From a virus, in UHGV virus genome UHGV-0206901: a stretch of 26,230 nt of DNA. One strand, written 5' to 3'. A program made the position numbers and the translations under genes. Each line of letters begins with the position of its first letter. Positions within the stretch are counted from its first letter, which is position 1. Positions 822 to 17,548 of this stretch are shown piece after piece. The notes beneath the pieces were generated by a model. It was not told where the DNA came from and searched no databases. It was given only the letters and a program-made list of their open reading frames with translations.

Positions 822-1307
822 ATGACACTGACAGAGAACTTCATTCGTGATGCGATACAGCTTGACAGCGGTGCAGAGGTCATGTACGGCAGCAATCAGA
901 TCTATGACACCTATCCCTGCCGCTTTCCGACTGTTGAATTTCAGCTCATGGCAACGGATACCCTTGTGGAGGTTGCAGACCGCATCCGCATGGAGAAGGG
1001 CTACTTTCCGATGCATCCGTGGGACGGACGCACGGATGATGTGGACTGCGATGGTTGGTACGACTTTTATATCGGGATCAGCAAGCTCCCCGGCGACCAT
1101 CAGCAGTGCCAGCTTGACAGCAGTATCAGCTTTGTTGTTGTCAATTCCGATTCGGATGACAACGAGGATATGTACAACATCGACCTGACGGAATCCGAAA
1201 AGGAATATGTGTATGAGATACTGAACCGACAGTGCCGGAGGTATCACGGCAAGGACTGCGCCGAACTTCTGGCAGAGTCTGAAAAGGAGCTGATGGATAC
1301 AGCATGA
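822..1307 (+). CDS. Hypothetical protein
   Basis: ORF track 714-1307; internal ATG at 822 is preceded by GGAGGAGG (808-815) with a 6-nt spacer; stop overlaps the nrdD start (ATGA at 1304-1307); no recognisable motif. Confidence 0.5.
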   Translation: MTLTENFIRDAIQLDSGAEVMYGSNQIYDTYPCRFPTVEFQLMATDTLVEVADRIRMEKGYFPMHPWDGRTDDVDCDGWYDFYIGISKLPGDHQQCQLDSSISFVVVNSDSDDNEDMYNIDLTESEKEYVYEILNRQCRRYHGKDCAELLAESEKELMDTA

Positions 1308-3451: not shown

Positions 3452-3915
3452 ATTACTGCGGTCTGAATAAAAACGACATCGCCAACGGTGACGGTGTACG
3501 AGTTTCGCTGTTCGTATCCGGATGCCGGAATCACTGCAAGGGCTGTCACAACCCGGAGACATGGGATTTCAGCTATGGACAGCCTTTCACCAAGAAAACT
3601 GAAGATGAGATCATCGAAGCCCTGCGTCCCTCGTGGATACAGGGGCTTTCTGTTCTCGGCGGTGAACCCTGCGAGGAAGAAAACGAGCGTGTGCTGCTGC
3701 CGCTGCTGAAAAAGATCTGGTGGGAGATGCCGGAAAAAGATATTTGGCTGTATAGCGGGTACACCTATGAACAGTTGCAAGGCAGAGCGATACTTCGGTA
3801 TGTGGATGTACTTGTGGACGGTCCGTTTCTGCTGGAGCAGAAGGATATCTCGCTTCCGTTCCGCGGCAGCCGGAATCAACGGATCCTCCGATTAAGAAAT
3901 GGGGTACGGGTATGA
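3448..3915 (+). CDS. nrdG: Anaerobic ribonucleotide reductase activating protein (radical SAM)
   Basis: GTG start overlapping the nrdD stop (GTGA); N-terminus MNYCGLNKNDIANGDGVRVSLFVSGCRNHCKGCHN matches the canonical NrdG N-terminus, including the CxxxCxxC radical-SAM cluster. Confidence 0.9.
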   Translation: MNYCGLNKNDIANGDGVRVSLFVSGCRNHCKGCHNPETWDFSYGQPFTKKTEDEIIEALRPSWIQGLSVLGGEPCEEENERVLLPLLKKIWWEMPEKDIWLYSGYTYEQLQGRAILRYVDVLVDGPFLLEQKDISLPFRGSRNQRILRLRNGVRV

Positions 3916-4229
3916 GAGCCAGACTGAGACCGCCAGGAGATGCCGTTCGCTGCGATGCCTGCGGATGTGCATTTGTTCCGGAAACACTGACGCAGCGTGA
4001 GGGTGAGATCGAATACAGCTTCTTCCGCTGCGACTATTGCGGCAAGGCGTATCTCGTATCCGTTACGGATGCAGACCTCTGCAAGGATATCCGCAGATAC
4101 AGAACGCTTGCGGAAAAGCACAAGATCAAGCCCCTGAGTGAACAGTCGCTCCGCGAGATGGCTGCGCTGAAAGAGCAGAACTTAAAACGAGCCGCAAAGC
4201 TGCGGCAGTTGTACTATGTGGAGGGATGA
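3912..4229 (+). CDS. Zinc-ribbon protein, function unknown
   Basis: 105-aa ORF whose ATG overlaps the nrdG stop; two CxxC pairs (CDACGC, CDYCGK); basic C-terminal tail. Confidence 0.5.
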   Translation: MRARLRPPGDAVRCDACGCAFVPETLTQREGEIEYSFFRCDYCGKAYLVSVTDADLCKDIRRYRTLAEKHKIKPLSEQSLREMAALKEQNLKRAAKLRQLYYVEG

Positions 4230-4230
4230 G

Positions 4231-5514
4231 ATGAAGACAGCAGAACTTCGTGTGATCCCTGTCACGGAGCTGAAGCCTGCGGCATATAACCCGCGCAAAA
4301 AGCTGAAGCCCGGCGACAAGGAATACGAAAAGATCAAAAACAGCATCGAGGAATTCGGCTTTGCCGATCCGCTGGTAGTCAACGCCGACATGACCATCAT
4401 CGGCGGGCATCAGCGACTGACCGTAGCGATGGCGCTCGGATACACCGAGGTACCCTGTGCGGTGGTGGACATCGACAAGGTCAGAGAAAAGGCGCTGAAC
4501 ATTGCGCTCAACAAGATCACCGGCGCATGGGACGAGAGCCTTCTGGCTGAACTGTTGCAGGACATTCAGGACAGCGACTTCGACCTCGGAAAGACCGGCT
4601 TTGATCCGCCGGAGATCGAGCAGCTTTTCAATCAGGTACACAATAAAGACATCAAGGAAGATGACTTTGATATTGAAGAAGAGCTGAAACAGCCGACCTT
4701 CTCAAAACTCGGTGACCTGTGGATTCTGGGCAAGCACCGTATCGTCTGCGGTGACAGCACCAAGTCGGAAACCTACGAGCTGCTTATGAACGGTGAAAAA
4801 GCAAATCTCCTGCTGACCGATCCGCCGTACCTCGTAGCATACAGCAATACCTCCGGCAGCATCAAGAACGATGACCTTTCGGATAAGGAAGGCTATGAAT
4901 TCCTGAAAAGCGCATTTGCCTGTTTCAAAGAGAACCTTGCAGATGATTCTGCGGTGTATGTTTTCTACGCGACATCAAAATCGAGGGTGTTCTATGACGC
5001 TTTCGAGGATGCCGGATTCCGTGTTTCTTGCGGATTGGTCTGGCGCAAGGACAGGCTTGTGCTGTCGAGGACGGACTATCAGCAGAACTTCGAGCCTGTG
5101 ATCTACGGCTGGAAAAAGAACGGCAAGCACACATGGTACGGTGACCGTAAGCAGACCACCTGCTTTGACTTCGACCGTCCGAAAAGCTCCAAAGCCGAGG
5201 GTGAGGGACATCCGACTGCAAAGCCTGTACCGCTGATGGCATATCTCATCAAGCAGTCCACCATGACAAACGGCATTGTGCTGGACGGCTTCCACGGTTC
5301 CGGTTCTACCATGATCGCCTGTGAACAGCTCGACCGAAAATGCAGAGCTGTAGAATTGGATGAAAAGTTTGTGGACGTTCAAGTGAAGCGGTATATCAAA
5401 TTCCGCGAGGGCAAGTACGATGATGTGTATGTCATCCGTGACGGGCAGAAGCTTTCCTTCGATGAAGCGGTGGCAGCGATGCCGACAGCAGAGGGTGGTG
5501 ATACGAATGGGTGA
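4231..5514 (+). CDS. ParB-like nuclease domain fused to a DNA amino-methyltransferase (probably N6-adenine; beta-class motif order)
   Basis: ATG at 4231 preceded by GGAGGGA; N-terminal ParB/Srx-like region (ELKPAAYNPRK...IIGGHQRL); central LLLTDPPY (motif IV) precedes GFHGSGST (motif I), the beta-class order. Confidence 0.85.
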   Translation: MKTAELRVIPVTELKPAAYNPRKKLKPGDKEYEKIKNSIEEFGFADPLVVNADMTIIGGHQRLTVAMALGYTEVPCAVVDIDKVREKALNIALNKITGAWDESLLAELLQDIQDSDFDLGKTGFDPPEIEQLFNQVHNKDIKEDDFDIEEELKQPTFSKLGDLWILGKHRIVCGDSTKSETYELLMNGEKANLLLTDPPYLVAYSNTSGSIKNDDLSDKEGYEFLKSAFACFKENLADDSAVYVFYATSKSRVFYDAFEDAGFRVSCGLVWRKDRLVLSRTDYQQNFEPVIYGWKKNGKHTWYGDRKQTTCFDFDRPKSSKAEGEGHPTAKPVPLMAYLIKQSTMTNGIVLDGFHGSGSTMIACEQLDRKCRAVELDEKFVDVQVKRYIKFREGKYDDVYVIRDGQKLSFDEAVAAMPTAEGGDTNG

Positions 5515-6310
5515 ACTGAAACCTCTGCTTCATGTGGTCTCCTTCAGCGGCGGGAAAGACAGCACTGCGATGCTCCTGAAGATGTTAGAAATGGGAATGC
5601 AGGTTGATCTGGTGCTGTTTTGCGATACCGGATTAGAATTCCCGGCACTGTATGACCATGTACACAAAGTCGAACAGGATACCGGCGTGAAAATCACGAC
5701 TGTAAAGAGCGAAAACACATTTGAGTATCTCATGCTCCACAAGCCGATCAAGCGGAAGAAACCGGAACTGCGCGGCAAGACCGGTTACAGTTGGGCGGGA
5801 CCGCTGATGCGGTGGTGTACAAACCTTCTGAAAACGGTGCCTCGTGAGAAGTTTCTCAGCGAACTGCGGAAAAATTACGATGTGATCGAGTACATCGGCA
5901 TCGCCGCCGATGAAACGGAACGCATCACGCACAAATGCAGCTGCCGACCGAATGTCCGTCTGCCGCTTGTGGAGTGGGGCATGACCGAAGCTGACTGCCT
6001 GCAATACTGCAGGGAACGCGGCTATGACTGGGGCGGTCTGTATGAGAAATTCGGACGGGTATCCTGTTGGTGCTGTCCGCTGCAGCCGCTGAACGAGCTG
6101 CGTGTCCTCTACTACGATTTTCCCGACCTCTGGAAACAACTCAGGGAATGGGATGATGCAACATGGCGCACCTTCAAGCCCGGATGGTCAGTCCGGAAAC
6201 TGGAGGCGCGTTTTGATTTTGAGCTGGAATGGCAGACGGACGGCAATCAGCTCGGCACAAAGGAATTCCACAAAGCCCTGAAAAAGAGACTGGAGGATGT
6301 CGATGGCTGA
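5507..6310 (+). CDS. PAPS-reductase-like PP-loop protein (DndC-like fold family), possible DNA-modification accessory enzyme
   Basis: Internal ATG at 5507 with upstream GAGGGTGGTGA; PP-loop motif SFSGGKDS near the N-terminus; C-terminal cysteine cluster CWCCP; 8-nt overlap with the upstream methyltransferase gene and 8-nt overlap with the downstream one. Confidence 0.75.
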   Translation: MGELKPLLHVVSFSGGKDSTAMLLKMLEMGMQVDLVLFCDTGLEFPALYDHVHKVEQDTGVKITTVKSENTFEYLMLHKPIKRKKPELRGKTGYSWAGPLMRWCTNLLKTVPREKFLSELRKNYDVIEYIGIAADETERITHKCSCRPNVRLPLVEWGMTEADCLQYCRERGYDWGGLYEKFGRVSCWCCPLQPLNELRVLYYDFPDLWKQLREWDDATWRTFKPGWSVRKLEARFDFELEWQTDGNQLGTKEFHKALKKRLEDVDG

Positions 6311-7082
6311 TGTGAAATGTGAGCTGTATCACGATAACTTCCAGAACTTCAAATCCTACTGCATCCCAAAAGCACAGCTCGTCATTGCTGACATTCCGTA
6401 CAACATCGGCGGCGACTTTTATGCCAGCCGTCCCGACTGGTATGTGAACGGTGACAATCAGAACGGTGAAAGCAGCAAAGCGCACAAGGCTGCATTCCAC
6501 ACGGATTACACCTTCAACATCGCTGAATACTTCGCCTTCTGTAACCGGCTGCTCAAAAAGGAGCCGTCCAAAGGTGAGAAGGATGCTCCCTGCATGATTG
6601 TATTCTGTGCCTTTCAGCAGATACCCGAGGTCATCCGGCAGGCGGAGAAATACGGCTTCAAGAAGTATCAGTTTTTGTGCTTTATGAAGAATTACAGTCC
6701 GCAGGTGCTGAAGGCGAACATGAGGATCGTGGGCGCAACGGAGTTTGCTCTGGTGCTGTATCGGGGAAAGCTGCCGAAGTTCCGCAATACCGATGCATAC
6801 GGCAAGAGGCACATGATCTTCGACCATTTTGACTGGATGCGGGACGGCAAGGATATCCCGAAGATACATCCTTCGCAGAAGCCGGTAAATCTCCTGAAAC
6901 GGCTGATCGGGATATTTACCGACGAGGGTGATGTGGTCATCGATCCCTGCGCCGGTTCCGGCTCAACGCTGCGTGCGGCGAGGGAGCTTGGCAGACACAG
7001 CTACGGCTTTGAAGTCAGCCGAGATTTTTACAACAAAGCCTGTGAGCAGATGCTTGGGGAGGTGCAGGATGACAAAGTATGA
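6303..7082 (+). CDS. DNA amino-methyltransferase (N6-adenine or N4-cytosine), divergent motif IV
   Basis: ATG at 6303 is 6 nt after GGAGG; IADIPYN (variant DPPY-type motif IV) near the N-terminus and DPCAGSGST (motif I, AdoMet binding) near the C-terminus. Confidence 0.7.
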   Translation: MADVKCELYHDNFQNFKSYCIPKAQLVIADIPYNIGGDFYASRPDWYVNGDNQNGESSKAHKAAFHTDYTFNIAEYFAFCNRLLKKEPSKGEKDAPCMIVFCAFQQIPEVIRQAEKYGFKKYQFLCFMKNYSPQVLKANMRIVGATEFALVLYRGKLPKFRNTDAYGKRHMIFDHFDWMRDGKDIPKIHPSQKPVNLLKRLIGIFTDEGDVVIDPCAGSGSTLRAARELGRHSYGFEVSRDFYNKACEQMLGEVQDDKV

Positions 7083-7284
7083 GTGCGCCATTGTGACGGC
7101 ATACACAGATATCTCGATGCTGTGCGGCGATGATCTGAAATATCTGTATGACTATCTTTCCGGCTTTATCGGCAGACCGGTGTATACACACGAGATTCCT
7201 GCGGTGGCTGCGGCTTACAGAGACAAGATCAGAGAGGACTTCCTCGATCTGTGCAGGAACGCAAAGGAGGCGGATGATGGATAA
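7069..7284 (+). CDS. Small hypothetical protein
   Basis: 71-aa ORF starting at an internal ATG of ORF 6928-7284, overlapping the upstream methyltransferase stop; no recognisable motif; the 11-nt overlap with the next gene suggests translational coupling. Confidence 0.4.
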   Translation: MTKYECAIVTAYTDISMLCGDDLKYLYDYLSGFIGRPVYTHEIPAVAAAYRDKIREDFLDLCRNAKEADDG

Positions 7285-9487
7285 GAAACACTTGACCCTC
7301 GGCAGCCTGTTTGACGGCTCGGGGGGGTTTCCGCTTGGCGGCATCCTCGCAGGGATCGAGCCGAAGTGGAGCAGCGAAATTGAACCTTTTCCGGTGCTTG
7401 TCACGCACAAGCGACTGCCTGGGGTGAAGCACTACGGCGATGTATCCACACTGAACGGTGCAGAGCTTCCGCCGGTGGATATTATCACCTTCGGCAGCCC
7501 TTGTCAGGATCTGTCCATTGCTGGAAAGCGTGCCGGAATCCATGACGGTGATCGGTCGAACCTGTTCTTTCAGGCGATCCGTATCATCAAAGAAATGAGG
7601 GATGCAACAAATGGACAATACCCGCGATACTGCGTCTGGGAGAATGTCCCCGGCGCTTTCTCCTCCCACGGAGGAGACGATTTCAAAGCTGTCCTCGAAG
7701 CAGTTATCGGAATTAAAGAAGAAGGGATCGAGGTGCCTGCGCCTGAAAATCACAGATGGGCAAAATCAGACGTATATCTGGGAGACGGATGGAGCGTGGC
7801 TTACCGAGTTTTCGATGCTCAATACTGGGGTGTCCCCCAACGCAGAGCAAGAATCTACCTTGTCGCAGATTTTGCTGGCGGAAGTGCCGGAGAAATACTA
7901 TTTAAGTCCGAAGGCGTGTCTGGGTATACTCCGCAGGGCTTCCGTTCGTGGCAAGGAACTGCCGGAGGTGCTGAAGAAAGCACTGGAGCGACAGGCTGGC
8001 GGTCTGACGCTGGAGGTGGAACCCTCTGCGTAAACTGTCAGGGCACGGCAGGTGTCGGTATCACAGAAGATAAGGCACTGGCACTTGTCGCACAGGATCA
8101 CGGGAATCATCCAGCCGTTCTTGCCGCAGGTTTTTCCACAGAGCATAGTGCAAAAGCACGAAGCATCGGCTACGAAGAGGAAGTATCTCCTACACTGAGA
8201 GCTGGTGTTGTTCCGGCGGCAATGGAGCTTCAAAGCTATCCCGTTGAAAATCATCCTGCGGATTCGAGAGTCAGGGTGCGTGAGGACGGAAAGTGTCAGG
8301 GGCTTACAGGCAGAATGGGAACAGGCGGCGGAAACGTACCGCTTGTAGCAGAACCGATTACGCTAAAAATCCGCAGTGGTGGCGGAAATGGTGGTAAGGG
8401 CGCTATCTGGCAAACAGATAAATCCGCAACTCTTGCAACCAATAATGACCAGACGCTTTTTCAGCCGGAGGTCAAGGCTTTCGGTGTATGCAGCAAGCAC
8501 TCCAATGCGATGATGTCCGACAATCCGCACAGCGGATTCTATGAGGCGACCACAAGCAGAACGCTCGACCAAAGTGGTGGAAATTCTGTGACATCGAATC
8601 AGGGCGGCATCTGCGTGGTAGCACCTGCGCCTGAAACCTTCGATGTGCGTTTCACATCAGACGGTACAAAAAACGCTCGTGGGCATTGTTACCCGACAGA
8701 CATTTCCCGATGCCTTGATACGAGCGAGGCGAACCCGGACAGCAATCACGGAGGAGTTGCGGTGGTGGCTCTCGAACCGGGGGCGGCATCCCGTATCGGC
8801 GGTCATGTATACAGTGACGGCAAAAGCGGCACGCTCCGTGCAAATGCCGGAGACAATCAGCAGGCTGTTGTGGTAGCCGAGAAGGAGACCTATGCACTGC
8901 AAGGCTCGATGATCGGTCGCGCCGATCAGAACGGACCGCAGGGTGATGGTATCAATGAAGATGTGTGCTTTACGCTGAACACAACAGACAGGCATGCTGT
9001 CGCAGCACCGGATGCCGATCACTACAGCACAAGCAAGAATTCTCACCACACAGTCGCCGCACATGAACAGGCAAACACGCTGGTCGCATCCGACTGGAAG
9101 GATCCTCCGCTTGTGAACGACCTTCCGAATGACGAGCCGGTATATATCGTTCGTCGTCTGACTCCGGTGGAGTGCGCCAGATTGCAGGGATTCCCCGACT
9201 GGTGGTGTGCCGACCTTGCGATTCCCGATCCGACCGATGAGGAGATCACCTTCTGGATGGAAGTATGGGAAACTTGGAGACAGATCACAAATCCCAAGGG
9301 AAAGCCGAAAACGGAAAAGCAGATCCGCAAATGGTTGGCTGATCCGTACACGGACAGTGCCGAGTACAAGTTATGGGGCAACGGTGTCTCAGAGCCCGTT
9401 GTGTTCTTCGTGCTATCCGGCATTGCCTGGGCGGCACAGAATTCTGAAACTAATGCAGCAAATTGTGAACATTCTGATACTATGTAA
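7274..9487 (+). CDS. DNA cytosine-5 methyltransferase with an exceptionally long variable (target-recognition) region, possibly multispecific
   Basis: ATG at 7274 preceded by AAGGAGG (7264-7270); motif I LFDGSGG, motif IV GSPCQDLS, motif VI ENVPG, motif VIII QRRARIYLV, C-terminal RRLTPVECARLQGFPDWW; about 480 aa lie between motifs VIII and IX. Confidence 0.9.
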   Translation: MMDKKHLTLGSLFDGSGGFPLGGILAGIEPKWSSEIEPFPVLVTHKRLPGVKHYGDVSTLNGAELPPVDIITFGSPCQDLSIAGKRAGIHDGDRSNLFFQAIRIIKEMRDATNGQYPRYCVWENVPGAFSSHGGDDFKAVLEAVIGIKEEGIEVPAPENHRWAKSDVYLGDGWSVAYRVFDAQYWGVPQRRARIYLVADFAGGSAGEILFKSEGVSGYTPQGFRSWQGTAGGAEESTGATGWRSDAGGGTLCVNCQGTAGVGITEDKALALVAQDHGNHPAVLAAGFSTEHSAKARSIGYEEEVSPTLRAGVVPAAMELQSYPVENHPADSRVRVREDGKCQGLTGRMGTGGGNVPLVAEPITLKIRSGGGNGGKGAIWQTDKSATLATNNDQTLFQPEVKAFGVCSKHSNAMMSDNPHSGFYEATTSRTLDQSGGNSVTSNQGGICVVAPAPETFDVRFTSDGTKNARGHCYPTDISRCLDTSEANPDSNHGGVAVVALEPGAASRIGGHVYSDGKSGTLRANAGDNQQAVVVAEKETYALQGSMIGRADQNGPQGDGINEDVCFTLNTTDRHAVAAPDADHYSTSKNSHHTVAAHEQANTLVASDWKDPPLVNDLPNDEPVYIVRRLTPVECARLQGFPDWWCADLAIPDPTDEEITFWMEVWETWRQITNPKGKPKTEKQIRKWLADPYTDSAEYKLWGNGVSEPVVFFVLSGIAWAAQNSETNAANCEHSDTM

Positions 9488-9649: not shown

Positions 9650-10771
9650 ATGAAAACTTATGCAATGATCATTGGAAACCGCAAGGAACTCACAAAGAGA
9701 ATCGAGGCACTCACCGGAGAGCGCAGCGTATACACCTTCATGCCGAGATGCGCCTATGAGATCGGGGCATTCGCAGTCGAGAAGGACGGCACACTTACGG
9801 CACAGGACGATGCCAACCAGAGCGTGATCGACACCCTGAGAGCCGAGGGTATGATCGGTGATGAGATCATCGCAGAGAGCATCGAGGCAGTCGAGCCGGA
9901 GCAGACCGATGAGACCGCAGAGCCGGAACAGCCTGCACCGCCCGTAAGCACCGATGAATGGGACGATGATGAGGATGACGACGATGAGAACAGCGTCGAG
10001 GGCGAGAATGCGGAAGCGGAAGAGCCGGAGGAGTCCGAAGAAAATGCCGATAAGTCGGAGCCTGCCGCAGAGCCAGAAGCCGCACCTCCTGCGACCGAGG
10101 ATGCCTGGGATGATGAACCGGAGGATGAACCCGGCGACGAGCCGGAAGAAACCACCGAGCTTCCTGAACCGCTGACCGCAGAGATCAGCTTCCCGCTGAG
10201 CCATCACACGGTGCAGAGCCTTACGAACCTCATCTGCATGATCCACTCCCGCGGCGCACTTCTCAGCAAGGCGACCGGCGGAGAATTCTTCGCAGACAAG
10301 AGCCTCGCCGATGCGATCCTCGATGACAAGACCTTCCGCAGCATCCACGAGCTTATCGCCTACATCAGAGTATGGGAGGAAACGAATCCCGAACTGAAGG
10401 GCATCCGTTTCGCCGATGACAAGCTGATCTTTGACGGCTTCGGTGCAGCACAGGATGCCGAGACGGTGCAGACCTTCACCAAGCTCGCCGCAGCCATGAA
10501 CAGGATGGCGATCACGCAGAAACGTGTGCAAGCAAAGGATGTCGATGACAGCAACGAAAAGTACGCACTCCGCATCTGGCTGATCCGCCTTGGGCTGAAC
10601 GGTGCTGACTTCAAGGCTGACCGCAAGCGCCTCATGACTCCGCTTTCCGGACACACCGCATTCCGCAACGATGAGGAGCGTGAACGCTGGGAGGCAAAGC
10701 AAAAGGCAAAGCGTGATGCTGCCAGAACCGAACTGACCGAGGAGGATGAAAACGATGCAGTTTCCGAATGA
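9650..10771 (+). CDS. Amidoligase-like paralog, probably catalytically degenerate, with a ~95-aa acidic low-complexity insertion
   Basis: 373 aa; the C-terminal half aligns by eye with the downstream amidoligase-like ORF (TVQSLTNL vs TPQTLRNL; KYALRIWLIRLGLNGADF vs KFAMRTWLMRMGFIGDEF); the GVEIE and HCH motifs of the paralog are absent; residues ~80-172 are D/E/P-rich. Confidence 0.55.
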   Translation: MKTYAMIIGNRKELTKRIEALTGERSVYTFMPRCAYEIGAFAVEKDGTLTAQDDANQSVIDTLRAEGMIGDEIIAESIEAVEPEQTDETAEPEQPAPPVSTDEWDDDEDDDDENSVEGENAEAEEPEESEENADKSEPAAEPEAAPPATEDAWDDEPEDEPGDEPEETTELPEPLTAEISFPLSHHTVQSLTNLICMIHSRGALLSKATGGEFFADKSLADAILDDKTFRSIHELIAYIRVWEETNPELKGIRFADDKLIFDGFGAAQDAETVQTFTKLAAAMNRMAITQKRVQAKDVDDSNEKYALRIWLIRLGLNGADFKADRKRLMTPLSGHTAFRNDEERERWEAKQKAKRDAARTELTEEDENDAVSE

Positions 10772-11003
10772 ACGACAGCTCAAAGCCTTGCGGGAGCGTT
10801 ATCCCGAAGGCACCCTTATCCGACTGAAGCACATGGACGATCCCTACGCACCAGTGCCGCCCGGAACAATTGGCGAGGTTCAGATGGTCGATGACGGCGG
10901 CAACATACACATGGTCTGGCAGAACGGCAGAACGCTTTCTCTTATAGAAGGCGTGGATGATTTCCAGGTCATTTCTGACCGCAATGGGGGCCCCGGAAAA
11001 TAA
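10755..11003 (+). CDS. Small hypothetical protein
   Basis: ATG at 10755 is 8 nt after GGAGGA and overlaps the upstream gene end; 82 aa, glycine-rich beta-like sequence (GTIGEVQMVDDGGNIHMVWQNG). Confidence 0.5.
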   Translation: MQFPNERQLKALRERYPEGTLIRLKHMDDPYAPVPPGTIGEVQMVDDGGNIHMVWQNGRTLSLIEGVDDFQVISDRNGGPGK

Positions 11004-11116
11004 GAGATCCTATTCCATTGTATCCGAGTATACCATAGAATTTCAAGTATATCAAGTGTACACATACACCAGATATGAGCAATGTATTTTCCTCGATATT
11101 CTGTGGTTTTAGCGGC

Positions 11117-11145
11117 TTGCTATATCCTCCGAAAGACGGTAACAT
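11117..11145 (+). promoter_or_regulatory. Sigma-A-type promoter cassette 2 (TTGCTA, 17 bp, TAACAT) with conserved leader
   Basis: -35 at 11117-11122, -10 at 11140-11145; leader GTGACACAACGGAAGGGCAAATGCCCACCGAAAAACCGAATCGGAGGA; ATG at 11201. Confidence 0.6.
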
Positions 11146-11200
11146 GTGACACAACGGAAGGGCAAATGCCCACCGAAAAACCGAATCGGAGGATACCAAA

Positions 11201-12145
11201 ATGACTGAGAAAACCGCACAGCAGATCAACAGAATGAAGGAGCAGACCATCGGGGTTGAGATCGAGATGAACAACATCACCCGCAAGGCTGCCGCAAAGC
11301 TCGCCGCTGACTTCTTCGGCACGAACCGCTACGAGGACACGGCCTGCCGCAACGGCTACTACACTTGGAGCGCATGGGATGCACAGGGGCGCGAGTGGAA
11401 ATTCCAGCGGGACGTGAGCATCGCAGGCTCCGACAGCGAAAAGTGCGAACTGGTCACACCGATCCTGCACTACGCAGACATCGAAACCCTGCAGGAGCTT
11501 GTGAGAAAGCTCAGGAAGGCAGGAGCGCGCAGTGATTACACGCGGGGATGTGGAGTCCACTGCCATATTGGAGCCCAGGGACACACACCGCAGACCTTGA
11601 GAAACCTCGCAAACCTGATGGCAAGCCACGAAACCCTGATCGCCGAGGCAATCAGAGTAGACCAGAGCAGAATGCGCCGCTACTGCAGAACAGTTGACCC
11701 GAGATTCCTTGAACAGCTCAACCGCAAAAAGCCCACCACGATGGCACAGCTTGCGGACATCTGGTACGGCGCACAGGGCTGCGAATACGGCAGAACCCAC
11801 CACTACAACGACAGCCGCTATCACATGCTCAACCTCCACGCTACCTTCACCAAAGGCACGGTCGAGTTCAGACTTTTCCAGTTCGCACCGCCCTCAAACG
11901 GCAAGCAGAACGGGCTCCACGCAGGCAAGCTCAAGAGCTACATTCAGCTCTGCCTCGCAATGAGCCAGATGGCAAAGGACCTGCGGAGCGCCAGCCCCAA
12001 GGAGCAGCAGAAGGAAAACAAAAAGTTCGCCATGCGGACTTGGCTGATGAGAATGGGATTCATCGGGGATGAATTCGCAACGGCGAGAGAGGTCCTCACT
12101 GAGAACCTTACGGGCGACAACAGCTTCCGCTTCGGCAGATCTTAA
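11201..12145 (+). CDS. Putative amidoligase (glutamine-synthetase-like / gamma-glutamyl-cysteine-ligase-like ATP-dependent amide ligase family)
   Basis: 314 aa; N-terminal IGVEIEMNN strand with paired glutamates and a central GCGVHCHIG motif, both typical of Amidoligase_2-type enzymes as I recall them; own promoter cassette; followed by an AIG2-like gene. Confidence 0.65.
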   Translation: MTEKTAQQINRMKEQTIGVEIEMNNITRKAAAKLAADFFGTNRYEDTACRNGYYTWSAWDAQGREWKFQRDVSIAGSDSEKCELVTPILHYADIETLQELVRKLRKAGARSDYTRGCGVHCHIGAQGHTPQTLRNLANLMASHETLIAEAIRVDQSRMRRYCRTVDPRFLEQLNRKKPTTMAQLADIWYGAQGCEYGRTHHYNDSRYHMLNLHATFTKGTVEFRLFQFAPPSNGKQNGLHAGKLKSYIQLCLAMSQMAKDLRSASPKEQQKENKKFAMRTWLMRMGFIGDEFATAREVLTENLTGDNSFRFGRS

Positions 12146-12410
12146 AGGCCTGCCCTTCGGGGCGGAAGAACAAGCGGAACGGCACGGCGGCGCACACAGC
12201 CGCCACGGTCTCGGCTCTCGCCTCGGTCGGTGCTTCTGCTTCGCAGAGGTTGCCACTGGCAACCCGCACCCCCGTGTGGGGCGGAAAGGGTATCCTCCGA
12301 ATCGGTATCCCATCTCAGTCAACCGCGCCACACAGCGCAAATGTAGGCAAGGCATAAAATGCACAACATACGGCACAGAATCGCCCTCGATGATCTGTTC
12401 ATTTACTCGC

Positions 12411-12439
12411 TTGATAATGCCGCCGAAATGAGTTAACAT
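12411..12439 (+). promoter_or_regulatory. Sigma-A-type promoter cassette 3 (TTGATA, 17 bp, TAACAT)
   Basis: -35 at 12411-12416, -10 at 12434-12439; leader AGCACTACCGCAAGGAAAAAACGCAAAGGAG; ATG at 12479. Confidence 0.55.
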
Positions 12440-12478
12440 AGCACTACCGCAAGGAAAAAACGCAAAGGAGAACATAGC

Positions 12479-12940
12479 ATGAACAAGAAAAAATACTACA
12501 TAGCCTACGGCAGCAACCTCAACATCCGCCAGATGCGATTCCGCTGCCCAGGCGCAAAGCCTATCGGCATCACGGTGATTCCCGACTACGAACTGCTCTA
12601 CAAGGGCAGCAAGACCGGCGCGTACCTGACCATAGAACCGAAGAAGAACGGCATCGTTCCGATTGCGGTATGGGAGGTCACCGCAGCAGACGAGAAGCGG
12701 CTGGATGCCTACGAGGGCTGCCCGACCTTCTACTACAAGAAGAACGTCTGCCTGCCGGTGAAGCTGGCAAGCGGCAAGACCAAGCGCCTGACAGCATTCG
12801 TCTACATCATGCACGAGGAGCGCAGCCTCGGAATTCCGTCGCTTGCCTACATCCGCACCTGCGAGGAAGGCTATCGCAACTTCGGATTTGATTTGAAGTA
12901 CCTTGACAGGGCATACATGAGAAGCACAAAGGAGGACTGA
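12479..12940 (+). CDS. AIG2 / gamma-glutamyl cyclotransferase (GGCT)-like protein
   Basis: 153 aa; N-terminal YIAYGSNLN matches the Y-x-A-Y-G-S-N-L/M hallmark of the GGCT/AIG2 fold; a candidate catalytic Glu lies in LDAYEGCP. Confidence 0.7.
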   Translation: MNKKKYYIAYGSNLNIRQMRFRCPGAKPIGITVIPDYELLYKGSKTGAYLTIEPKKNGIVPIAVWEVTAADEKRLDAYEGCPTFYYKKNVCLPVKLASGKTKRLTAFVYIMHEERSLGIPSLAYIRTCEEGYRNFGFDLKYLDRAYMRSTKED

Positions 12941-12942
12941 AA

Positions 12943-13146
12943 ATGAAAGAACAAGTTTTTGAAAAGCGTACATGTCCGAAATGCGGACGCACCTACACCG
13001 AGCGCCCTGCCCTATCCCGCTACGACAACGACACGATCATCTGCCCGGACTGCGGCACGAGGGAGGCGCTTGAAAGCATCGGCGTCGGACGCGAGGAACA
13101 GGACAAGATTCTCGGCATTATCCACGAGAAGTACAACGGCGAATAA
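12943..13146 (+). CDS. Small zinc-ribbon protein
   Basis: 67 aa; GGAGG RBS; CPKCG...CPDCG cysteine pairs; the ATG is 2 nt after the upstream stop. Confidence 0.55.
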   Translation: MKEQVFEKRTCPKCGRTYTERPALSRYDNDTIICPDCGTREALESIGVGREEQDKILGIIHEKYNGE

Positions 13147-13154
13147 GGCGGCAC

Positions 13155-13178
13155 AAAGGGGCGTTACAGCCCCTTTCC
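13155..13178 (+). terminator. Putative intrinsic terminator
   Basis: AAAGGGGC gttaca GCCCCTTT hairpin followed by TCC; 8 nt after the stop of the zinc-ribbon gene. Confidence 0.5.
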
Positions 13179-13317
13179 GCATTCTCAGGGATAACTTATC
13201 CCCCACTTTCCGGGCGTGACACGGCGCGTTCTGGCGCAAACTGTGGGCTTGTGTATATGTACCTGTTCAGCTTGCTGAAAACGGCGATTCTTCTACGATT
13301 TATTTTGCACATAGGCG

Positions 13318-13346
13318 TGGACATATCGCCGGGATCATGGTAATAT
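13318..13346 (+). promoter_or_regulatory. Sigma-A-type promoter cassette 4 (TGGACA, 17 bp, TAATAT) with upstream A/T-rich element
   Basis: TTTATTTTGCACATAGGCG upstream; -35 at 13318-13323; TG-extended -10 at 13341-13346; leader CACAACGGCAGGGGCAGACAGCCCACC. Confidence 0.6.
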
Positions 13347-13404
13347 GCTACACAACGGCAGGGGCAGACAGCCCACCGGAATTCATAACATGGAGGATAC
13401 GAAT

Positions 13405-13875
13405 ATGAACGACAGCTACTTTGAGGAGATGACCTTCCAGTGCGCCGCCTATGAACGCGCCAAAAAGGAGCGCGCCGAGCGCAAGGCTCAGATTGCCGAA
13501 GCCCACGGCTACGACAGCCCGGAGATGGACGCTTGGTACGCTGAGGAGAAGGCGGCGGGTCCTTACCCCTACAGCGGCGGTGAGATGAAAGCCTACTGGG
13601 TGTACAAGATGCGCCGCGAGAACGACGGTGACGAGTTCGAGATGAGCGATTACTGCTGGGACAAGGAATTCCACGATTTCATCGAAACGCTCCGCAAGCT
13701 AGGCATCACCGAGTTCACGATCACCAATCAGAGCACGGCGCTGATGGAGAACATCTACGGATTTATTGCAGAAGGCTGCACGATGGTCGGAACGCACACC
13801 ATCACCAAGAAGAGCCTGCGCTGGGGCGAGGAAGAATACGAAACGGCACAGGGCATCCTTTTCAAGGTGAACTGA
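13405..13875 (+). CDS. Hypothetical protein
   Basis: ATG at 13405 is 8 nt after GGAGGA, the same position as in the other cassettes; 156 aa; no recognisable motif. Confidence 0.55.
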   Translation: MNDSYFEEMTFQCAAYERAKKERAERKAQIAEAHGYDSPEMDAWYAEEKAAGPYPYSGGEMKAYWVYKMRRENDGDEFEMSDYCWDKEFHDFIETLRKLGITEFTITNQSTALMENIYGFIAEGCTMVGTHTITKKSLRWGEEEYETAQGILFKVN

Positions 13876-13883
13876 TATCGACA

Positions 13884-13920
13884 GGAGCAGGGCTTCGGCT
13901 CTGCTCCCCCTCCCCCTTTT
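13884..13920 (+). terminator. UUCG-tetraloop hairpin, putative terminator
   Basis: GGAGCAGGGC ttcg GCTCTGCTCC (10 bp with one G-U pair) followed by CCCCTCCCCCTTTT; the same hairpin recurs at 15715-15738. Confidence 0.45.
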
Positions 13921-13993
13921 CCTCATGTGTAAATCCTACAATACGAAAGGCTGAGATCGGCGATTCTTCTACGTTTTATTTTGCACATAGGCG

Positions 13994-14022
13994 TGGACTT
14001 ATCAGCAGGATCATGGTAATAT
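13994..14022 (+). promoter_or_regulatory. Sigma-A-type promoter cassette 5 (TGGACT, 17 bp, TAATAT)
   Basis: Near-identical to cassette 4, including the upstream TTTATTTTGCACATAGGCG; leader GTGACACAACGGAAGGGCAGAACGCCTACCGAAAAACGAAACGGAGGA. Confidence 0.6.
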
Positions 14023-14077
14023 GTGACACAACGGAAGGGCAGAACGCCTACCGAAAAACGAAACGGAGGATAACACC

Positions 14078-14398
14078 ATGAACCCCTACACACTGAGAAA
14101 GAGCCTGAACCTGATTGATGCCAACACGGCGATCATCCGCGAGGACTTCGAGAGCCTCTTCTGCAAGACTGCAGAGCGTGTCACCTTTACCTTCAACGGT
14201 TGGGACGGCAAGAGCTATGATGGCGAGAGGCGCAGCGGTTACGTTTACCGCACCATCATCGAGGGCTACGAGAATGTGAGATTCTTTAAGGTCGGCAAGG
14301 GACTGCATTACATCGATGAGGACAGCAGCATTACCGAGAAGGCTACGGGCATCGCCCACAAGGAAGCAGAGTGGCTGGTCGATGTGAAGAGAGCATAA
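14078..14398 (+). CDS. Hypothetical protein
   Basis: 106 aa; GGAGGA 7 nt upstream of the ATG. Confidence 0.55.
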   Translation: MNPYTLRKSLNLIDANTAIIREDFESLFCKTAERVTFTFNGWDGKSYDGERRSGYVYRTIIEGYENVRFFKVGKGLHYIDEDSSITEKATGIAHKEAEWLVDVKRA

Positions 14399-14463
14399 GC
14401 AAAACAGCGGAGCCCTTCCTGCGGGGAGGGCTTACCGCAGAAAAAACATGGAGGTTTACGAAC

Positions 14464-14847
14464 ATGAGTACGAATTCAAGAGTCGGAATCCTGCATCAGG
14501 ACGGCGCCACGGAGACAATCTACTGCCATTGGGACGGCTACCCCGAACACCAGATGCCCATCCTCACCGAGCATTATAACACCGCCGAGAAGGTCAAGGC
14601 ACTGCTTGCCCTTGGAGACATCAGCATCCTCGGCGAGCGCCTTGCTCCCGATGCGGATGAGCCGCACAGCTTTGAAAAGCCTGCCGATGGTGTGACGGTT
14701 GCTTACCACCGCGACCGCAAAGAGCCGATGCAGCCTGCGGTCACCCACAAGAGCGTTGTTTCCCTGATGAGCGATGACTGGGGCATTCCGTATTACTACC
14801 TTTTCGATGAGGAAAAAGGAGCATGGCTTCCGCCGACCGAGGACTGA
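14464..14847 (+). CDS. Hypothetical protein
   Basis: Internal ATG at 14464 is 9 nt after GGAGG; 127 aa; probably co-transcribed with the preceding gene (no promoter cassette in between, only a hairpin). Confidence 0.5.
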   Translation: MSTNSRVGILHQDGATETIYCHWDGYPEHQMPILTEHYNTAEKVKALLALGDISILGERLAPDADEPHSFEKPADGVTVAYHRDRKEPMQPAVTHKSVVSLMSDDWGIPYYYLFDEEKGAWLPPTED

Positions 14848-15276
14848 TAGGTTCAGCCCTGCGGGGCTGACTTGCCCCACGTTGTCCTTTGTGAGGTTTT
14901 CCTGCGATAAGCTTGCCCCTGCGGAAAGCCGCCTCACACGGCGCGTTTGTGTGCTGACCGCAGTCATCGCAAACCTGTCGGCCACGGGAACATGGACGGA
15001 GCGAGAAGTGATGGAAACGCTGCTGGATGTCTTTGAACCGAAGGAGCTTGAACAGCTCGGCTACGGCGACTGCGTGAACGCATACTTGGAAGAGTACGGC
15101 GGATGGCGACGACACACGCACCACGTTGCCTCGTGTGGGGCGGTGCCGGGGAGATGCGTACAGCTTGCCCCTGCGAAAAGCCGCCTTACACGGCGCGTTC
15201 TGGCGCGTCCTATACGATGTACAATTCCGCCCGACTTCCCGCCTCATGTTTGTCACATTTATTTTGCAGACAGACG

Positions 15277-15305
15277 TGGACTTTTCTGCGAAAAGACGGT
15301 AATAT
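15277..15305 (+). promoter_or_regulatory. Sigma-A-type promoter cassette 6 (TGGACT, 17 bp, TAATAT)
   Basis: Upstream TTTATTTTGCAGACAGACG; leader GTGACTACCGCAAGAGAAGCGGAATCAATCAAAAGGAG; ATG at 15353. Confidence 0.6.
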
Positions 15306-15352
15306 GTGACTACCGCAAGAGAAGCGGAATCAATCAAAAGGAGCGAATCTAC

Positions 15353-15706
15353 ATGAAAATTCTGGTATGCGAACCCGGCAAGCACCCCTACGTCAAGGAC
15401 ATCGAGTCGGGGCTGGAGAACCTTCAGCACGAGGTGGACGGACTGATTCAGGCCCTCTACCCATTTTCCGAAGAGGCGGCTGTTGTGTGCAACGAAGAAG
15501 GGCTGTTCCGCGATGACCTCGAATGGAACAGAACGGTCGATCCCTATGGTCCGATCAAGGGAACATTCTTCATTTGTGGGCTCGGCTTTGAAGATTTTAC
15601 AGGACTGACCGATGAACAGATCGAAAAGTACACTAAGCTCTTCTGGCCTCCTGAGCTTTTCATCCCGACACCGAACGGCATGGTGGTGCTTCACATTGTG
15701 GAATGA
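15353..15706 (+). CDS. Hypothetical protein
   Basis: 117 aa, starting at the ATG placed like the other cassette-driven genes; the longer ORF-track frame (14774-15706) reads through repeat and promoter sequence and is probably not all coding. Confidence 0.55.
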   Translation: MKILVCEPGKHPYVKDIESGLENLQHEVDGLIQALYPFSEEAAVVCNEEGLFRDDLEWNRTVDPYGPIKGTFFICGLGFEDFTGLTDEQIEKYTKLFWPPELFIPTPNGMVVLHIVE

Positions 15707-15809
15707 CCGCAACAGGGGCAGGGCTTCGGCTCTGCTCCGCACCATTCCCCGGTCATAATGTACACAACTGAACGCCGAAAAATTCAGAAATGATCGTGAT
15801 TACTCACGC

Positions 15810-15838
15810 TTGATAATGTAGGCAAGAAGAGTTATACT
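15810..15838 (+). promoter_or_regulatory. Sigma-A-type promoter cassette 7 (TTGATA, 17 bp, TATACT)
   Basis: Leader GTGTACAACGGAAGGGCGGAAAGCCCAGCCGAAAACGAAAATGCGGAGG; ATG at 15896. Confidence 0.6.
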
Positions 15839-15895
15839 GTGTACAACGGAAGGGCGGAAAGCCCAGCCGAAAACGAAAATGCGGAGGTACACACC

Positions 15896-16075
15896 ATGAA
15901 AACGAAGCAGGAACTGATCGAGAAGGCAAAGAAAGAGTGGGGCGAGACTTGGAACGAGGGCATGATCGAGTACGATGCCGAGTACAACGAGTACATCGTC
16001 TGGGTAGGCAAGCCGGACATCTACAAAGCCTTCTTCGATGCCGACACCCTCAGATGCATTGGCACGAAGTGCTGA
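15896..16075 (+). CDS. Small hypothetical protein
   Basis: 59 aa; GGAGG 7 nt upstream; lysine/glutamate-rich. Confidence 0.45.
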   Translation: MKTKQELIEKAKKEWGETWNEGMIEYDAEYNEYIVWVGKPDIYKAFFDADTLRCIGTKC

Positions 16076-16130
16076 GAACAACCGCCGCCCTTCGGGGCGG
16101 CACAACACCAATACTAAGGAGGACATTTAC

Positions 16131-16403
16131 ATGAGCGAGAACACAGAAAAGCGCGATGCAGCCGAAGAACTAGAACTTACCGATGCACAGGCAGACCGCA
16201 ACGATGACATCTACGAGGCAGCTTTTGAATTCTGCAAGGTGCTGACCGAGAACCCCGACCTCGAATGGGACATGGCGTTCCTCGGTGAGATCGCCGACCT
16301 TGCCGCTGGCATCATGACCGAGCAGGGACACAAGGTGCGGTTCCCCAGTGTGGTCACCGAGCAGGACGGCACGCAGTACATTGAAGAATACTACGGCGGC
16401 TGA
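16131..16403 (+). CDS. Small acidic hypothetical protein
   Basis: 90 aa; AAGGAGG 7 nt upstream; preceded by the GCCGCCC ttcg GGGCGGC hairpin (16083-16100); ends ...YIEEYYGG. Confidence 0.5.
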   Translation: MSENTEKRDAAEELELTDAQADRNDDIYEAAFEFCKVLTENPDLEWDMAFLGEIADLAAGIMTEQGHKVRFPSVVTEQDGTQYIEEYYGG

Positions 16404-16604
16404 TCGGCAAAACGGAGCAGTCCTTCTGCGGAGGGGCTGTTCCACGCCACGTTCGCTTGTGTGGGGGGCTTACGGCTTTCTGCGGATATCTTGCCCCGCG
16501 ATAAAAGCCGCCCACACGGCGCATTTGTGTGCCTCCTGCGGCAAGGCATAATATGTACAACAACCGACAAAAAATCGCCTTGCACATTCTGGTAGTTTAG
16601 CCGC

Positions 16605-16633
16605 TTGATATATCTGCCGAAAAGAGTTATAGT
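16605..16633 (+). promoter_or_regulatory. Sigma-A-type promoter cassette 8 (TTGATA, 17 bp, TATAGT)
   Basis: Leader GTGTACAACGGAACGGGAAACCGAGCCGAAAACTACGAAAGAACGAGG; ATG at 16690. Confidence 0.55.
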
Positions 16634-16689
16634 GTGTACAACGGAACGGGAAACCGAGCCGAAAACTACGAAAGAACGAGGTAAACACT

Positions 16690-16926
16690 ATGTGGCACGA
16701 AGGCACGATTCTGGCACCGACCAAGGAAGGCAAGACGGTGGTTCACTACTGGGCAAAGGTCTACGACGAGGGCAGCCAGTACGGCATCAACGAGGGCAGA
16801 ATCAGTAAACTAACACTCAAGGAGAATGGCAAGGTCATCTACAACTACGACAGAGGCGAGGATGTACCCGAGCAGAACGAGGCTGCGAAGATTGCCCTTG
16901 CGATCCTGATGTACGAGTACAAGTAA
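16690..16926 (+). CDS. Small hypothetical protein
   Basis: 78 aa ORF downstream of cassette 8. Confidence 0.5.
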   Translation: MWHEGTILAPTKEGKTVVHYWAKVYDEGSQYGINEGRISKLTLKENGKVIYNYDRGEDVPEQNEAAKIALAILMYEYK

Positions 16927-17014
16927 ATAGAACGGTCGGTGGGCGGTAGCATTAAGCCGCCCATCCAAACCAAGACGGACACACATATAAATTCAAGGTG
17001 GATATACATAGGAG

Positions 17015-17044
17015 AGGCTTGCAGCACGCAGGCCTTTTCTTTAT
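17015..17044 (+). terminator. Intrinsic terminator between the accessory island and the packaging genes
   Basis: AGGCTTGC agcac GCAGGCCT (8 bp, one G-U) followed by TTTTCTTTAT; ends about 30 nt before the terS start. Confidence 0.6.
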
Positions 17045-17074
17045 GCAGATTTTTTGAGAAAAGGAGTGATGCGG

Positions 17075-17548
17075 ATGGCTCAGAGAGGCAGAAAACCGAC
17101 GCCGACAGCAATCAAGGAACTGGAAGGCAATCCGGGCAAGCGTCCGCTGAATGATGCAGAGCCGAAGCCGGAACGCAAGGCACCGCCCTGTCCGAAATGG
17201 CTGGAGCCCGAAGCAAAAAAGGAATGGCGCAGGCTGTCAAAGCAACTGGAGCAGATTGGTGTGCTGACCGAGGTCGATCAGGCGGCATTCGCATCCTACT
17301 GTCAGGCATACGCACGATGGAAAGAAGCCGAGGAATTCATGACACAGCACGGCACGATCGTGAAAACAAAATCAGGTTACTGGCAGCAGGTGCCGCAGGT
17401 ATCCATTGCACAGACCTATCTGAAGATCATGAATAAGATCGCAGAACAGTTCGGTCTGACTCCTGCCGCAAGAAGCAGGATCACCGCAGGTGCGGATATG
17501 AAGGACGCTGCCGTTGACGATATGGATGAACTTCTCGGAGGTGACTGA
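17075..17548 (+). CDS. terS: Terminase small subunit
   Basis: AAGGAG 8 nt upstream of the ATG at 17075; 157 aa; basic N-terminus (RGRKPTPTAIKELEGNPGKRP) and overall pattern typical of P27-family small terminases; sits directly upstream of, and overlaps, the large terminase. Confidence 0.8.
   Translation: MAQRGRKPTPTAIKELEGNPGKRPLNDAEPKPERKAPPCPKWLEPEAKKEWRRLSKQLEQIGVLTEVDQAAFASYCQAYARWKEAEEFMTQHGTIVKTKSGYWQQVPQVSIAQTYLKIMNKIAEQFGLTPAARSRITAGADMKDAAVDDMDELLGGD

Follow-up and report, generated by a model that had tools for sequence, protein, structure and literature searches.

UHGV-0206901 is a phage genome of 26,230 nucleotides (nt), referred to here as the window, in which a noncoding repeat of about 90 nt recurs between small genes. 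We found that this repeat and a promoter together form a conserved module of about 250 nt between genes, with the repeat as its upstream half, and that copies of the repeat recombine with one another. It is almost certain that the repeat family and the repeat-mediated loss of gene cassettes are real. With a probability of roughly 0.55, we interpret the repeat as the stem-loop half of a composite cassette of the terminator/insulator type, which forms the end of one unit and the start of the next.

Such composite cassettes would punctuate the accessory-gene region from the amidoligase genes to the terminase. Transcription of the upstream gene or gene pair would include the repeat as an untranslated 3' tail, and the gene-strand RNA would fold into a single long, irregular hairpin, built of a basal helix (YYGUGUGGGG/CCCCACACRG), a middle helix that varies among copies, and an apical GCGG-AUAAC-UUGC hairpin. 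Its 3' side would carry a smaller hairpin (P2) or, in many of the copies, be lengthened outward through pairing of CCACG with UGUG. The long hairpin would most likely stop or attenuate read-through and/or protect the 3' end of the mRNA, and each cassette would then be expressed from its own sigma-70-type promoter, 83 to 85 nt further 3'. Because the same 100 to 250 nt lie in direct orientation at every boundary, homologous recombination between copies could delete, insert, or swap whole cassettes.

An earlier note on the window had reported three full copies of the repeat (here, A, B, and C; coordinates of all features are presented in Table 1). In-window BLASTN and motif counts confirmed their places, the quoted motifs, and the coordinates. 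Reciprocal BLASTN inside the window recovered, with each of these copies, the other two (E = 3e-10 to 6e-9), i.e., far beyond chance. The motif CCACGTTN5GTGTGRGG (up to 2 mismatches) was present three times (0.07 expected), and CACACGGCGCR (up to 1 mismatch) was present seven times (1.28 expected), with five of the seven inside repeats. A profile made from the copies detected a fourth copy at 12270-12385 (nhmmer, E = 1e-5). The window holds five copies across 12.2 to 16.6 kb: A, B, and C are good copies, D is divergent and split, and E is a 3' half-copy.

The two copies that had been described as partial were revised. The sequence at 12270-12340 (copy D) does belong to the repeat; it is, however, a full divergent copy, the head of which (CCGCCACG) was split off by a 62-nt insertion (GTCTCGGCTCTCGCC...GGCAACCCGCA). 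This insertion is missing from the relatives L007 and L048, which are otherwise 97 to 99% identical here, and the uninterrupted L007 orthologue (7110-6965) aligns with copy D over its full length. The sequence at 13216-13238 (copy E) is partial as described but longer, being a 3' half-copy of about 13186-13250 that was supported by an nhmmer match (13218-13251) and by BLASTN (E = 8e-4). Similar 3' half-copies occur in L012, L015, L059, and L082.

The family was surveyed with pattern scans (two of IMG/VR and one each of GTDB genomes and JGI/ENA metagenomes) and then with a profile search that used sequence only. Together, these searches yielded 266 matches (E < 1e-8) in 137 stretches of phage, prophage, or metagenome origin, associated with Oscillospiraceae/Ruminococcus of the rumen and gut and corresponding to 164 unique sequences. 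The orientation was uniform within every stretch, with copies on both strands in 0 of the 137. In the scan of the genome collection, the repeat was confined to Clostridia of the rumen and gut, i.e., to the cultured Ruminococcus flavefaciens ND2009 and Ruminococcus sp. XPD3002 (as prophage copies) and to Oscillospiraceae and Clostridia metagenome-assembled genomes. Pattern hits from other phyla failed the repeat profile, with the exception of one marginal, chance-level match (L132; E = 2e-4). The repeats sit between DUF-type genes in a region of small, variable genes of mostly unknown function. In relatives (e.g., L088, L096, and L127), they follow a strict period in which one to three small genes precede each repeat, up to eight times in 8 kb, and the array ends just 5' of terS/terL. 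We found no description of this element in the literature.

The organization of the module was conserved throughout the family. The stop codon of the upstream gene was located 4 to 76 nt 5' of the repeat in 55 of 61 distinct contexts (3 nt in L012), often with a plain GC-rich tetraloop hairpin in between. The 5' motif of the element, CCACGTT(C/G), was nearly invariant. Of 138 copies, 121 had a long hairpin (P1), measured from YYGTGT to ACACRG, of 62 to 64 nt; in the type represented by copy A, P1 is 55 nt long. The small hairpin P2 (GGCGCR-N4-YGYGCC, or CGCG-N6-CGCG and then TTTTAC) and a Z block (CAAGGCATAATATGTACAACA ... AAAAATCGCC; also given as ATGTACAAC) complete the element. A second block (GGCAAGGCATAAnATG.ACAACA), which the earlier note had set apart from the repeat, is conserved as claimed but is not separate: in most relatives, it is the direct 3' continuation of the element. 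A putative sigma-70-like promoter, called by consensus match, was present 3' of 124 of the 129 unique full copies (96%), with its -35 box at a median of 84.5 nt (interquartile range, 83 to 85) past the end of P1. A Shine-Dalgarno sequence and a start codon came next after the promoter-like site in 122 of these 124 copies.

The stretch between the repeat and the -35 box (16540-16633, 12346-12439, and relatives) likewise showed sequence conservation and a constant length. A -10-like box in it is followed by (T)GTACAAC; because this motif also trails the real -10 box, the -10-like box may be a second weak promoter. Other features of this stretch are a small hairpin, GGCG-N6-CGCC, which has a U-rich tail, and a TCTGTACATTTAGCCGC box adjoining the -35 box. 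Operator sites could be represented by the TGTACA-like boxes located near positions -95, -45, and +1 of the module. In contrast to the unit boundaries, the gene pairs inside units (gaps 14399-14463 and 16076-16130) are divided by a plain GC-rich tetraloop hairpin alone (e.g., GAGCCCTTCC-TGCG-GGGAGGGCTT), with no repeat and no promoter.

P1 folded more stably than dinucleotide shuffles (mean z = -3.5; 57 unique copies). In copy B, for which the fold energy was -53.5 kcal/mol, P1 has a 13-bp basal helix that includes two G·U pairs, and the z score was -2.5 on the plus strand and -0.2 on the minus strand. When in-register pairing was scored on an alignment built without structural information, 79% of the cells were paired, compared with 35 to 65% when the partner was slid. 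The copies have diverged to about 65 to 70% identity yet keep the length and pairing of the hairpin, across several sequence types of the middle helix. The registers of this helix vary by type (GGGGCUUU/AAAGCCCC, GCGGUUUU/AAAACCGC, and GGGGCGG/CCGCCUU), and for this reason, MAFFT and RNAalifold retained only the basal 6 bp from 49 sequences. From 75 thinned sequences, RNAalifold produced a single long hairpin in which the CCACG flank pairs with UGUG 3' of P1. This outer helix uses the bases of P2, so that the two are mutually exclusive. It was 85% paired in 44 class I copies (…UGUG…) and poorly paired in 22 class II copies (…CUGG…), which have P2 plus UUUU in its place.

The strand on which the hairpin acts was indicated by the wobble pairs. 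Among the non-Watson-Crick stem cells, G·U on the plus strand exceeded A·C in P1 (152 versus 19), in P2 (116 versus 17), and in the apical GCGG-AUAAC-UUGC hairpin (111 versus 11). At the basal pair 53-113, we counted CG 75 times, UG 53 times, UA 18 times, and CA 2 times, and a 3'-side A was matched by U in 18 of 20 cases (Fisher P = 5e-5). Because G·U exceeds A·C 7- to 10-fold on the gene strand, these data point to an RNA hairpin in the 3' untranslated region (UTR) of the upstream gene. Such an excess of C-to-T over G-to-A changes is unexpected for a double-stranded DNA palindrome and expected for a gene-strand RNA. The wobble bias is good but not conclusive evidence, given that the cell counts are not phylogenetically independent. 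The suggestion that the repeats are small RNA genes was therefore upheld only with respect to an RNA role, which they apparently have as the 3' part of the upstream mRNA; an independent small-RNA gene was not supported, because the element begins so close to the upstream stop codon (4 to 76 nt, and 3 nt in L012) that there is no room for a promoter of its own.

Several results weigh against the interpretation of the repeat as an RNA stem-loop of the terminator/insulator type. The reverse complement of P1 folded equally well (z = -3.4), so that fold energy picks no strand. Compensatory covariation was weak (0.130, versus 0.117 in shuffles, of which 26 of 500 reached the observed value), and the middle-helix duplex was only 0.8 kcal/mol more stable with its own partner than with a swapped one (-12.07 versus -11.29 kcal/mol; 35 of 5,000 permutations were as low). 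Most of the stem is plain sequence conservation. P2 is weak (-6 to -11 kcal/mol), at least four U residues within the 8 nt after P2 were present in only 16 of 65 copies, and a terminator scan flagged no repeat element on the plus strand. Half-copies without the 5' arm persist 5' of promoters that look working, which implies that the hairpin is dispensable at these sites. Finally, the strict 83- to 85-nt spacing of the promoter suits a DNA-level role at least as well.

This spacing, seen in 124 of 129 copies, is the starting point for an alternative in which the element is a DNA-level upstream regulatory region of the next promoter, i.e., a platform for a phage or host regulator about eight helical turns from the -35 box, and the hairpin is a by-product of palindromic sites. 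The recurrent TGTACA-type boxes, the conserved motifs (CCACGTT, two CTTGCSCC direct repeats, and GGATAAC), and the equal folding of both strands are consistent with such a platform. A double-stranded palindrome, however, leaves the 7- to 10-fold excess of G·T over A·C unexplained. Furthermore, promoters that have just a 3' half-copy, or lack the repeat altogether, look intact (window 13876-14077 and 15707-15896; L012 868-1060), and the core of the element also precedes unrelated downstream sequence (L077_5960 and L069_11895). We consider this DNA-level reading unlikely. As to the binding sites for a phage regulator suggested in the earlier note, a protein partner may be involved, since the fixed spacing and the conserved apical loop are compatible with one.

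Judging from its position and by analogy with known systems, the hairpin would terminate, attenuate, or stabilize RNA, and its reader could be RNA polymerase, RNase III, or another factor. If it is an RNase III-type processing site, it would be no terminator and would instead cut read-through polycistronic RNA into hairpin-capped messages. The stem spans roughly two helical turns (11 basal, 4 to 8 middle, and 4 apical bp), to which class I copies add an outer extension of up to 9 bp. The tight length of P1 (62 to 64 nt), the intergenic location, the sense orientation, and the missing U tract are also as expected for processing sites. On the other hand, each unit has its own promoter, so that cleavage would not be needed to separate the messages, and the present evidence does not tell processing from termination. 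RNase III sites occur between the early genes of T7 and T3 (R sites) and in the early mRNA of Bacillus phage SP82, and the T7 and SP82 sites resemble one another in sequence within a genome. Like the repeat, they are intergenic, sense-strand, irregular hairpins of about 50 to 70 nt. Unlike the repeat, they are located inside one long polycistronic transcript with no intervening promoters, and their cleavage has been demonstrated, whereas that of the repeat would be hypothetical. Overall, we regard processing by RNase III as possible but not probable.

The constant length, the conserved AUAAC apical loop, the CCACGUU flank, and the two exclusive 3' pairings are the features behind a more specific reading, in which the hairpin of roughly 95 nt is a specifically recognized cis-regulatory RNA of Oscillospiraceae phages. 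It could be a factor-dependent terminator/antiterminator switch that times read-through from the accessory cassettes into the terminase and late genes, or it could double as a decoy for host RNA-targeting defence; we consider this reading doubtful. A broader version holds that the copies yield a functional RNA, such as a small RNA derived from the 3' UTR, a put-like polymerase-modifying element, a decoy for a host RNA-binding defence, or a switch between the outer helix and P2 that sets the level of read-through. The gene-strand structure with its conserved apical loop and conserved unpaired motifs, the shared bases of the outer extension and P2, and the presence of several copies per genome in a region rich in anti-restriction-type genes (methylases and amidoligases) would fit, and the lack of an Rfam family would make such an RNA new. 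Nevertheless, the element has no promoter of its own, its position 5' rather than 3' of promoters is the wrong place for a put-like element, and class II copies lack the outer helix, which together leave this version very unlikely.

Recombination between repeat copies was directly visible in the relatives. Cassette-sized insertions and deletions (indels), with junctions inside the repeats, distinguish the window from those relatives to which it is 94 to 99% identical. In seven contigs (L007, L048, L013, L024, L037, L042, and L058), window positions ~15196-15211 are joined to ~16481-16490 with a 40- to 47-nt overlap, and the three genes between copies B and C are missing. L022, L046, and L051 retain the block (15212-16489). 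The repeats at the junctions are hybrids of B and C, with the crossover inside ACACGGCGC in L007 and inside AAAGCCGCC in L024; these two crossover points indicate at least two independent events. The proposal that the repeats are recombination hotspots marking cassette boundaries was thus corroborated. In L015, L062, and L065, 14083-16490 is missing, and a 3' half-repeat is all that remains. Copy C is orthologous to the copy in L012, which is located 5' of the same DUF7678 gene.

Not every loss used the repeats. In the window, L007, L048, and L161, 612 nt were lost at 14952-14954 via a 3-nt microhomology, as read from the junction (3-nt overlap) against L013, L022, and L046. This deletion took the 3' part and the promoter of copy A, a 121-amino-acid (aa) gene, and the start of a small gene, the remnant of which (14955-15106) has TGG at 15104-15106 in place of the TAG stop codon of the relatives. 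The remnant and the TAG-to-TGG change account for a long spurious open reading frame (ORF) at 14774-15706 (310 aa), which crosses copy A, the remnant, copy B, and the promoter before joining the DUF3846 gene (15353-15706) in frame. Although gene callers might report this ORF, it is an artefact and probably meaningless. In L049, a different deletion relative to window 15034-16340 ends in two coding regions with a similar C-terminal motif (YLEEYGG and YIEEYYGG), which indicates that short coding homology also serves cassette loss.

Truncated, hybrid, interrupted, and half copies are common, and the ends of the element are inverted repeats reminiscent of miniature inverted-repeat transposable elements (MITEs). 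It could therefore be asked whether the repeat is a functionless linker, selfish or passively copied (MITE-like or a recombination scar), that hitchhikes with promoters. The retention of hairpin length and pairing at about 65 to 70% identity and across middle-helix types argues against it, as does the wobble bias, which implies selection on RNA pairing. Neither target-site duplications nor clean empty sites were seen, and the orientation was constant. We judge a functionless linker highly improbable. A MITE or a mobile repeat of the repetitive extragenic palindromic type was rejected on account of the missing duplications and the uniform orientation; absent copies are explained by homologous or microhomology deletions.

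Other identities were rejected as follows. The repeats had no match in Rfam 15 at E values up to 10; the sole Rfam hit in the window (PhotoRC-I; 15846-15869, minus strand; E = 2.4) was a chance hit that overlaps a 5' leader repeat (15843-15885). A canonical intrinsic terminator was ruled out by the weakness of P2 and its inconsistent U tail (16 of 65 copies). The U run after P1 begins 5 to 6 nt away, and an extension of P1 until this run adjoins the stem gained no support from covariation on inspection. A pseudoknot between CCACGUU and the apical loop was rejected because, again on inspection, the variants do not covary. A protein-coding repeat was excluded by the 1- and 8-nt length differences that shift the frame and by the conservation of nucleotides rather than amino acids, in line with the statement in the earlier note that the copies are noncoding and conserved at the nucleotide level. 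One frame is open in many repeat copies, and the copies are located 3' of the stop codons of family-assigned genes. Mini-ORFs of 15 and 25 aa that start in the Z block were not conserved in relatives. The copies differ by indels and are noncoding, which rules out template/variable repeats of a diversity-generating retroelement. A possible DnaA box (TGCGGATAA, one base off TGTGGATAA) and a parS half-site (TGTTCCACG, in copy C only) were not conserved across the family.

The integron attC site likewise forms an imperfect hairpin of similar length at the cassette 3' end and is tied to cassette gain and loss. It was rejected as an identity because the repeat has no R''/R' (RYYYAAC/GTTRRRY) boxes, the cassettes here have their own promoters, and the junctions are homologous crossovers at variable points, not site-specific cuts. 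No IntI/integrase gene was found in the window. Lambdoid boundary or linker sequences and the stoperators and start-associated sequences of actinobacteriophages measure 13 to 40 bp and are mostly protein binding or linked to translation. They too are short conserved intergenic sequences at the module borders of mosaic genomes, but they are not long hairpins like the element described here.

The closest parallel was found in PeSLs (promoter-early stem-loops), which are composite stem-loop/early-promoter motifs between the ORFans of hyperplastic regions in T4-type myoviruses (Arbiol et al. 2010, PMC2839356; Comeau et al. 2014, PMC4122927). The stem-loops of PeSLs, often without a canonical U tract, terminate efficiently in reporter assays (PMC2839356), and pairwise recombination between PeSLs accounts for indels between close relatives (PMC4122927). 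As in the window, the composite motifs are repeated within a hyperplastic region, separating small genes that have no known function, in the order upstream stop codon, stem-loop, sigma-70-like promoter, Shine-Dalgarno sequence, and start codon. G·T pairs in the stem-loops and indels of close relatives that end in the motifs are also shared. The differences are as follows. The element described here belongs to a phage of Firmicutes (Ruminococcus/Oscillospiraceae) with a siphovirus-type terS/terL/portal module, and it has a sequence-conserved irregular hairpin of 62 to 64 nt with extra conserved flanks. Its stem-loop is located about 85 nt 5' of the -35 box, whereas that of PeSLs is within or adjoining the promoter boxes, and there is no AT-rich tract 5' of the -35 box. 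The module measures about 250 nt, compared with about 70 nt for PeSLs, and there is no sequence similarity. Terminator activity and minicircles have been demonstrated for PeSLs, whereas termination by the element described here is a proposal. We conclude that the element shares the logic and the evolutionary consequence of PeSLs yet is outside the PeSL family.

Table 1. Features of the window UHGV-0206901
Feature	Position	Strand	Details
NrdD/NrdG	1304-3915	+	
Three DNA methylases and PAPS-reductase-like gene	4216-9487	+	ParB-N-fused N6/N4 methylase; PAPS-reductase (DndC-like); second N6/N4 methylase; 779-aa C5 methylase
Two amidoligase-type genes	9650-12145	+	
Copy D, divergent full copy	12200-12368	+	Head CCGCCACG 12200-12207; 62-nt insertion 12208-12269; P1 about 12272-12335; Z block GGCAAGGCATAAAATGCACAACA 12346-12368
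Promoter after copy D	12411-12439	+	TTGATA-17-TAACAT; promoter scan; inside conserved module
Gamma-glutamyl cyclotransferase (GGCT)	12479-12940	+	3' of amidoligase-type pair
Small-gene run after GGCT		+	Zn-ribbon gene, DUF7698, two unassigned genes, DUF3846, 59-aa gene, 90-aa gene, DUF7678
Copy E, 3' half-copy	13186-13250	+	Apical GGATAACTT through GACACGGCGCG and P2; without 5' arm
GC-rich tetraloop hairpin	14854-14869	+	CAGCCC-TGCG-GGGCTG; between stop codon of gene 14464-14847 and copy A; sequence, fold
Copy A	14870-14954	+	CCACGTT 14877-14883; short-type 55-nt P1 14887-14941; P2 cut at 14954 by deletion
3'-end remnant of small gene	14955-15106	+	...METLLDVFEPKELEQLGYGDCVNAYLEEYGG; left by 612-nt deletion
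Copy B	15117-15224	+	CCACGTT 15121-15127; 63-nt P1 15131-15193; P2 15192-15208; -10-like TATACG, then ATGTACAA, 15211-15224
Promoter after copy B	15277-15305	+	TGGACT-17-TAATAT; -35 at 83 nt past P1 end; repeat family D2
Three-gene cassette block	15212-16489	+	Between copies B and C
DUF3846 gene	15353-15706	+	In three-gene block
59-aa gene	15896-16075	+	In three-gene block
90-aa gene	16131-16403	+	In three-gene block
GC-rich tetraloop hairpin	16418-16439	+	Between stop codon of gene 16131-16403 and copy C; sequence, fold
Copy C, complete element	16443-16563	+	CCACGTT 16447-16453; 63-nt P1 16457-16519; P2 GGCGCA-TTTG-TGTGCC 16518-16533; Z block GGCAAGGCATAATATGTACAACA 16540-16563
Promoter after copy C	16605-16633	+	TTGATA-17-TATAGT; -35 at 85 nt past P1 end; promoter scan
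terS	17075-17548	+	Followed by terL and portal

All genes of this phage window are encoded on the plus strand, and the block at 4216-9487, located 5' of the cassette region, is dense in DNA-modification genes. No close relative was found in INPHARED (a GenBank phage collection), in which the sole matches were to the GGCT and amidoligase genes (60 to 80% identity). The GGCT gene was the only part of the queried region (12000-17100) with widespread DNA matches at 60 to 80% in gut Clostridia phages (i.e., those of Dorea, Ruminococcus, Agathobacter, and Coprococcus). A scan of the window for tRNA and tmRNA genes found none. The 5' leaders of cassette genes (11151-11193, 14028-14070, 15843-15885, and 16640-16680) share ACAACGGAAGGGC-N4-GCCC..CCGAAAAC, a small GC hairpin just 3' of the start site (repeat families D7 and D8).

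These results offer a sequence-level mechanism for the shuffling of accessory genes, probably with anti-defence and host-takeover functions, in the abundant and little-studied phages of rumen and gut Firmicutes. The punctuation cassette, present at every unit boundary, would combine the roles of regulatory insulator and portable homology. The PeSL idea, documented so far in T4-type phages of Gram-negative hosts, would thereby extend to an unrelated lineage with a much larger stem-loop. Not represented in Rfam and apparently undescribed, the repeat is also a candidate structured RNA motif. Two hosts in culture, R. flavefaciens ND2009 and Ruminococcus sp. XPD3002, have prophage copies and are available for experiments. 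As a marker of cassette borders, the motif allows the variable genes in metagenomic phage contigs to be delimited and mined.

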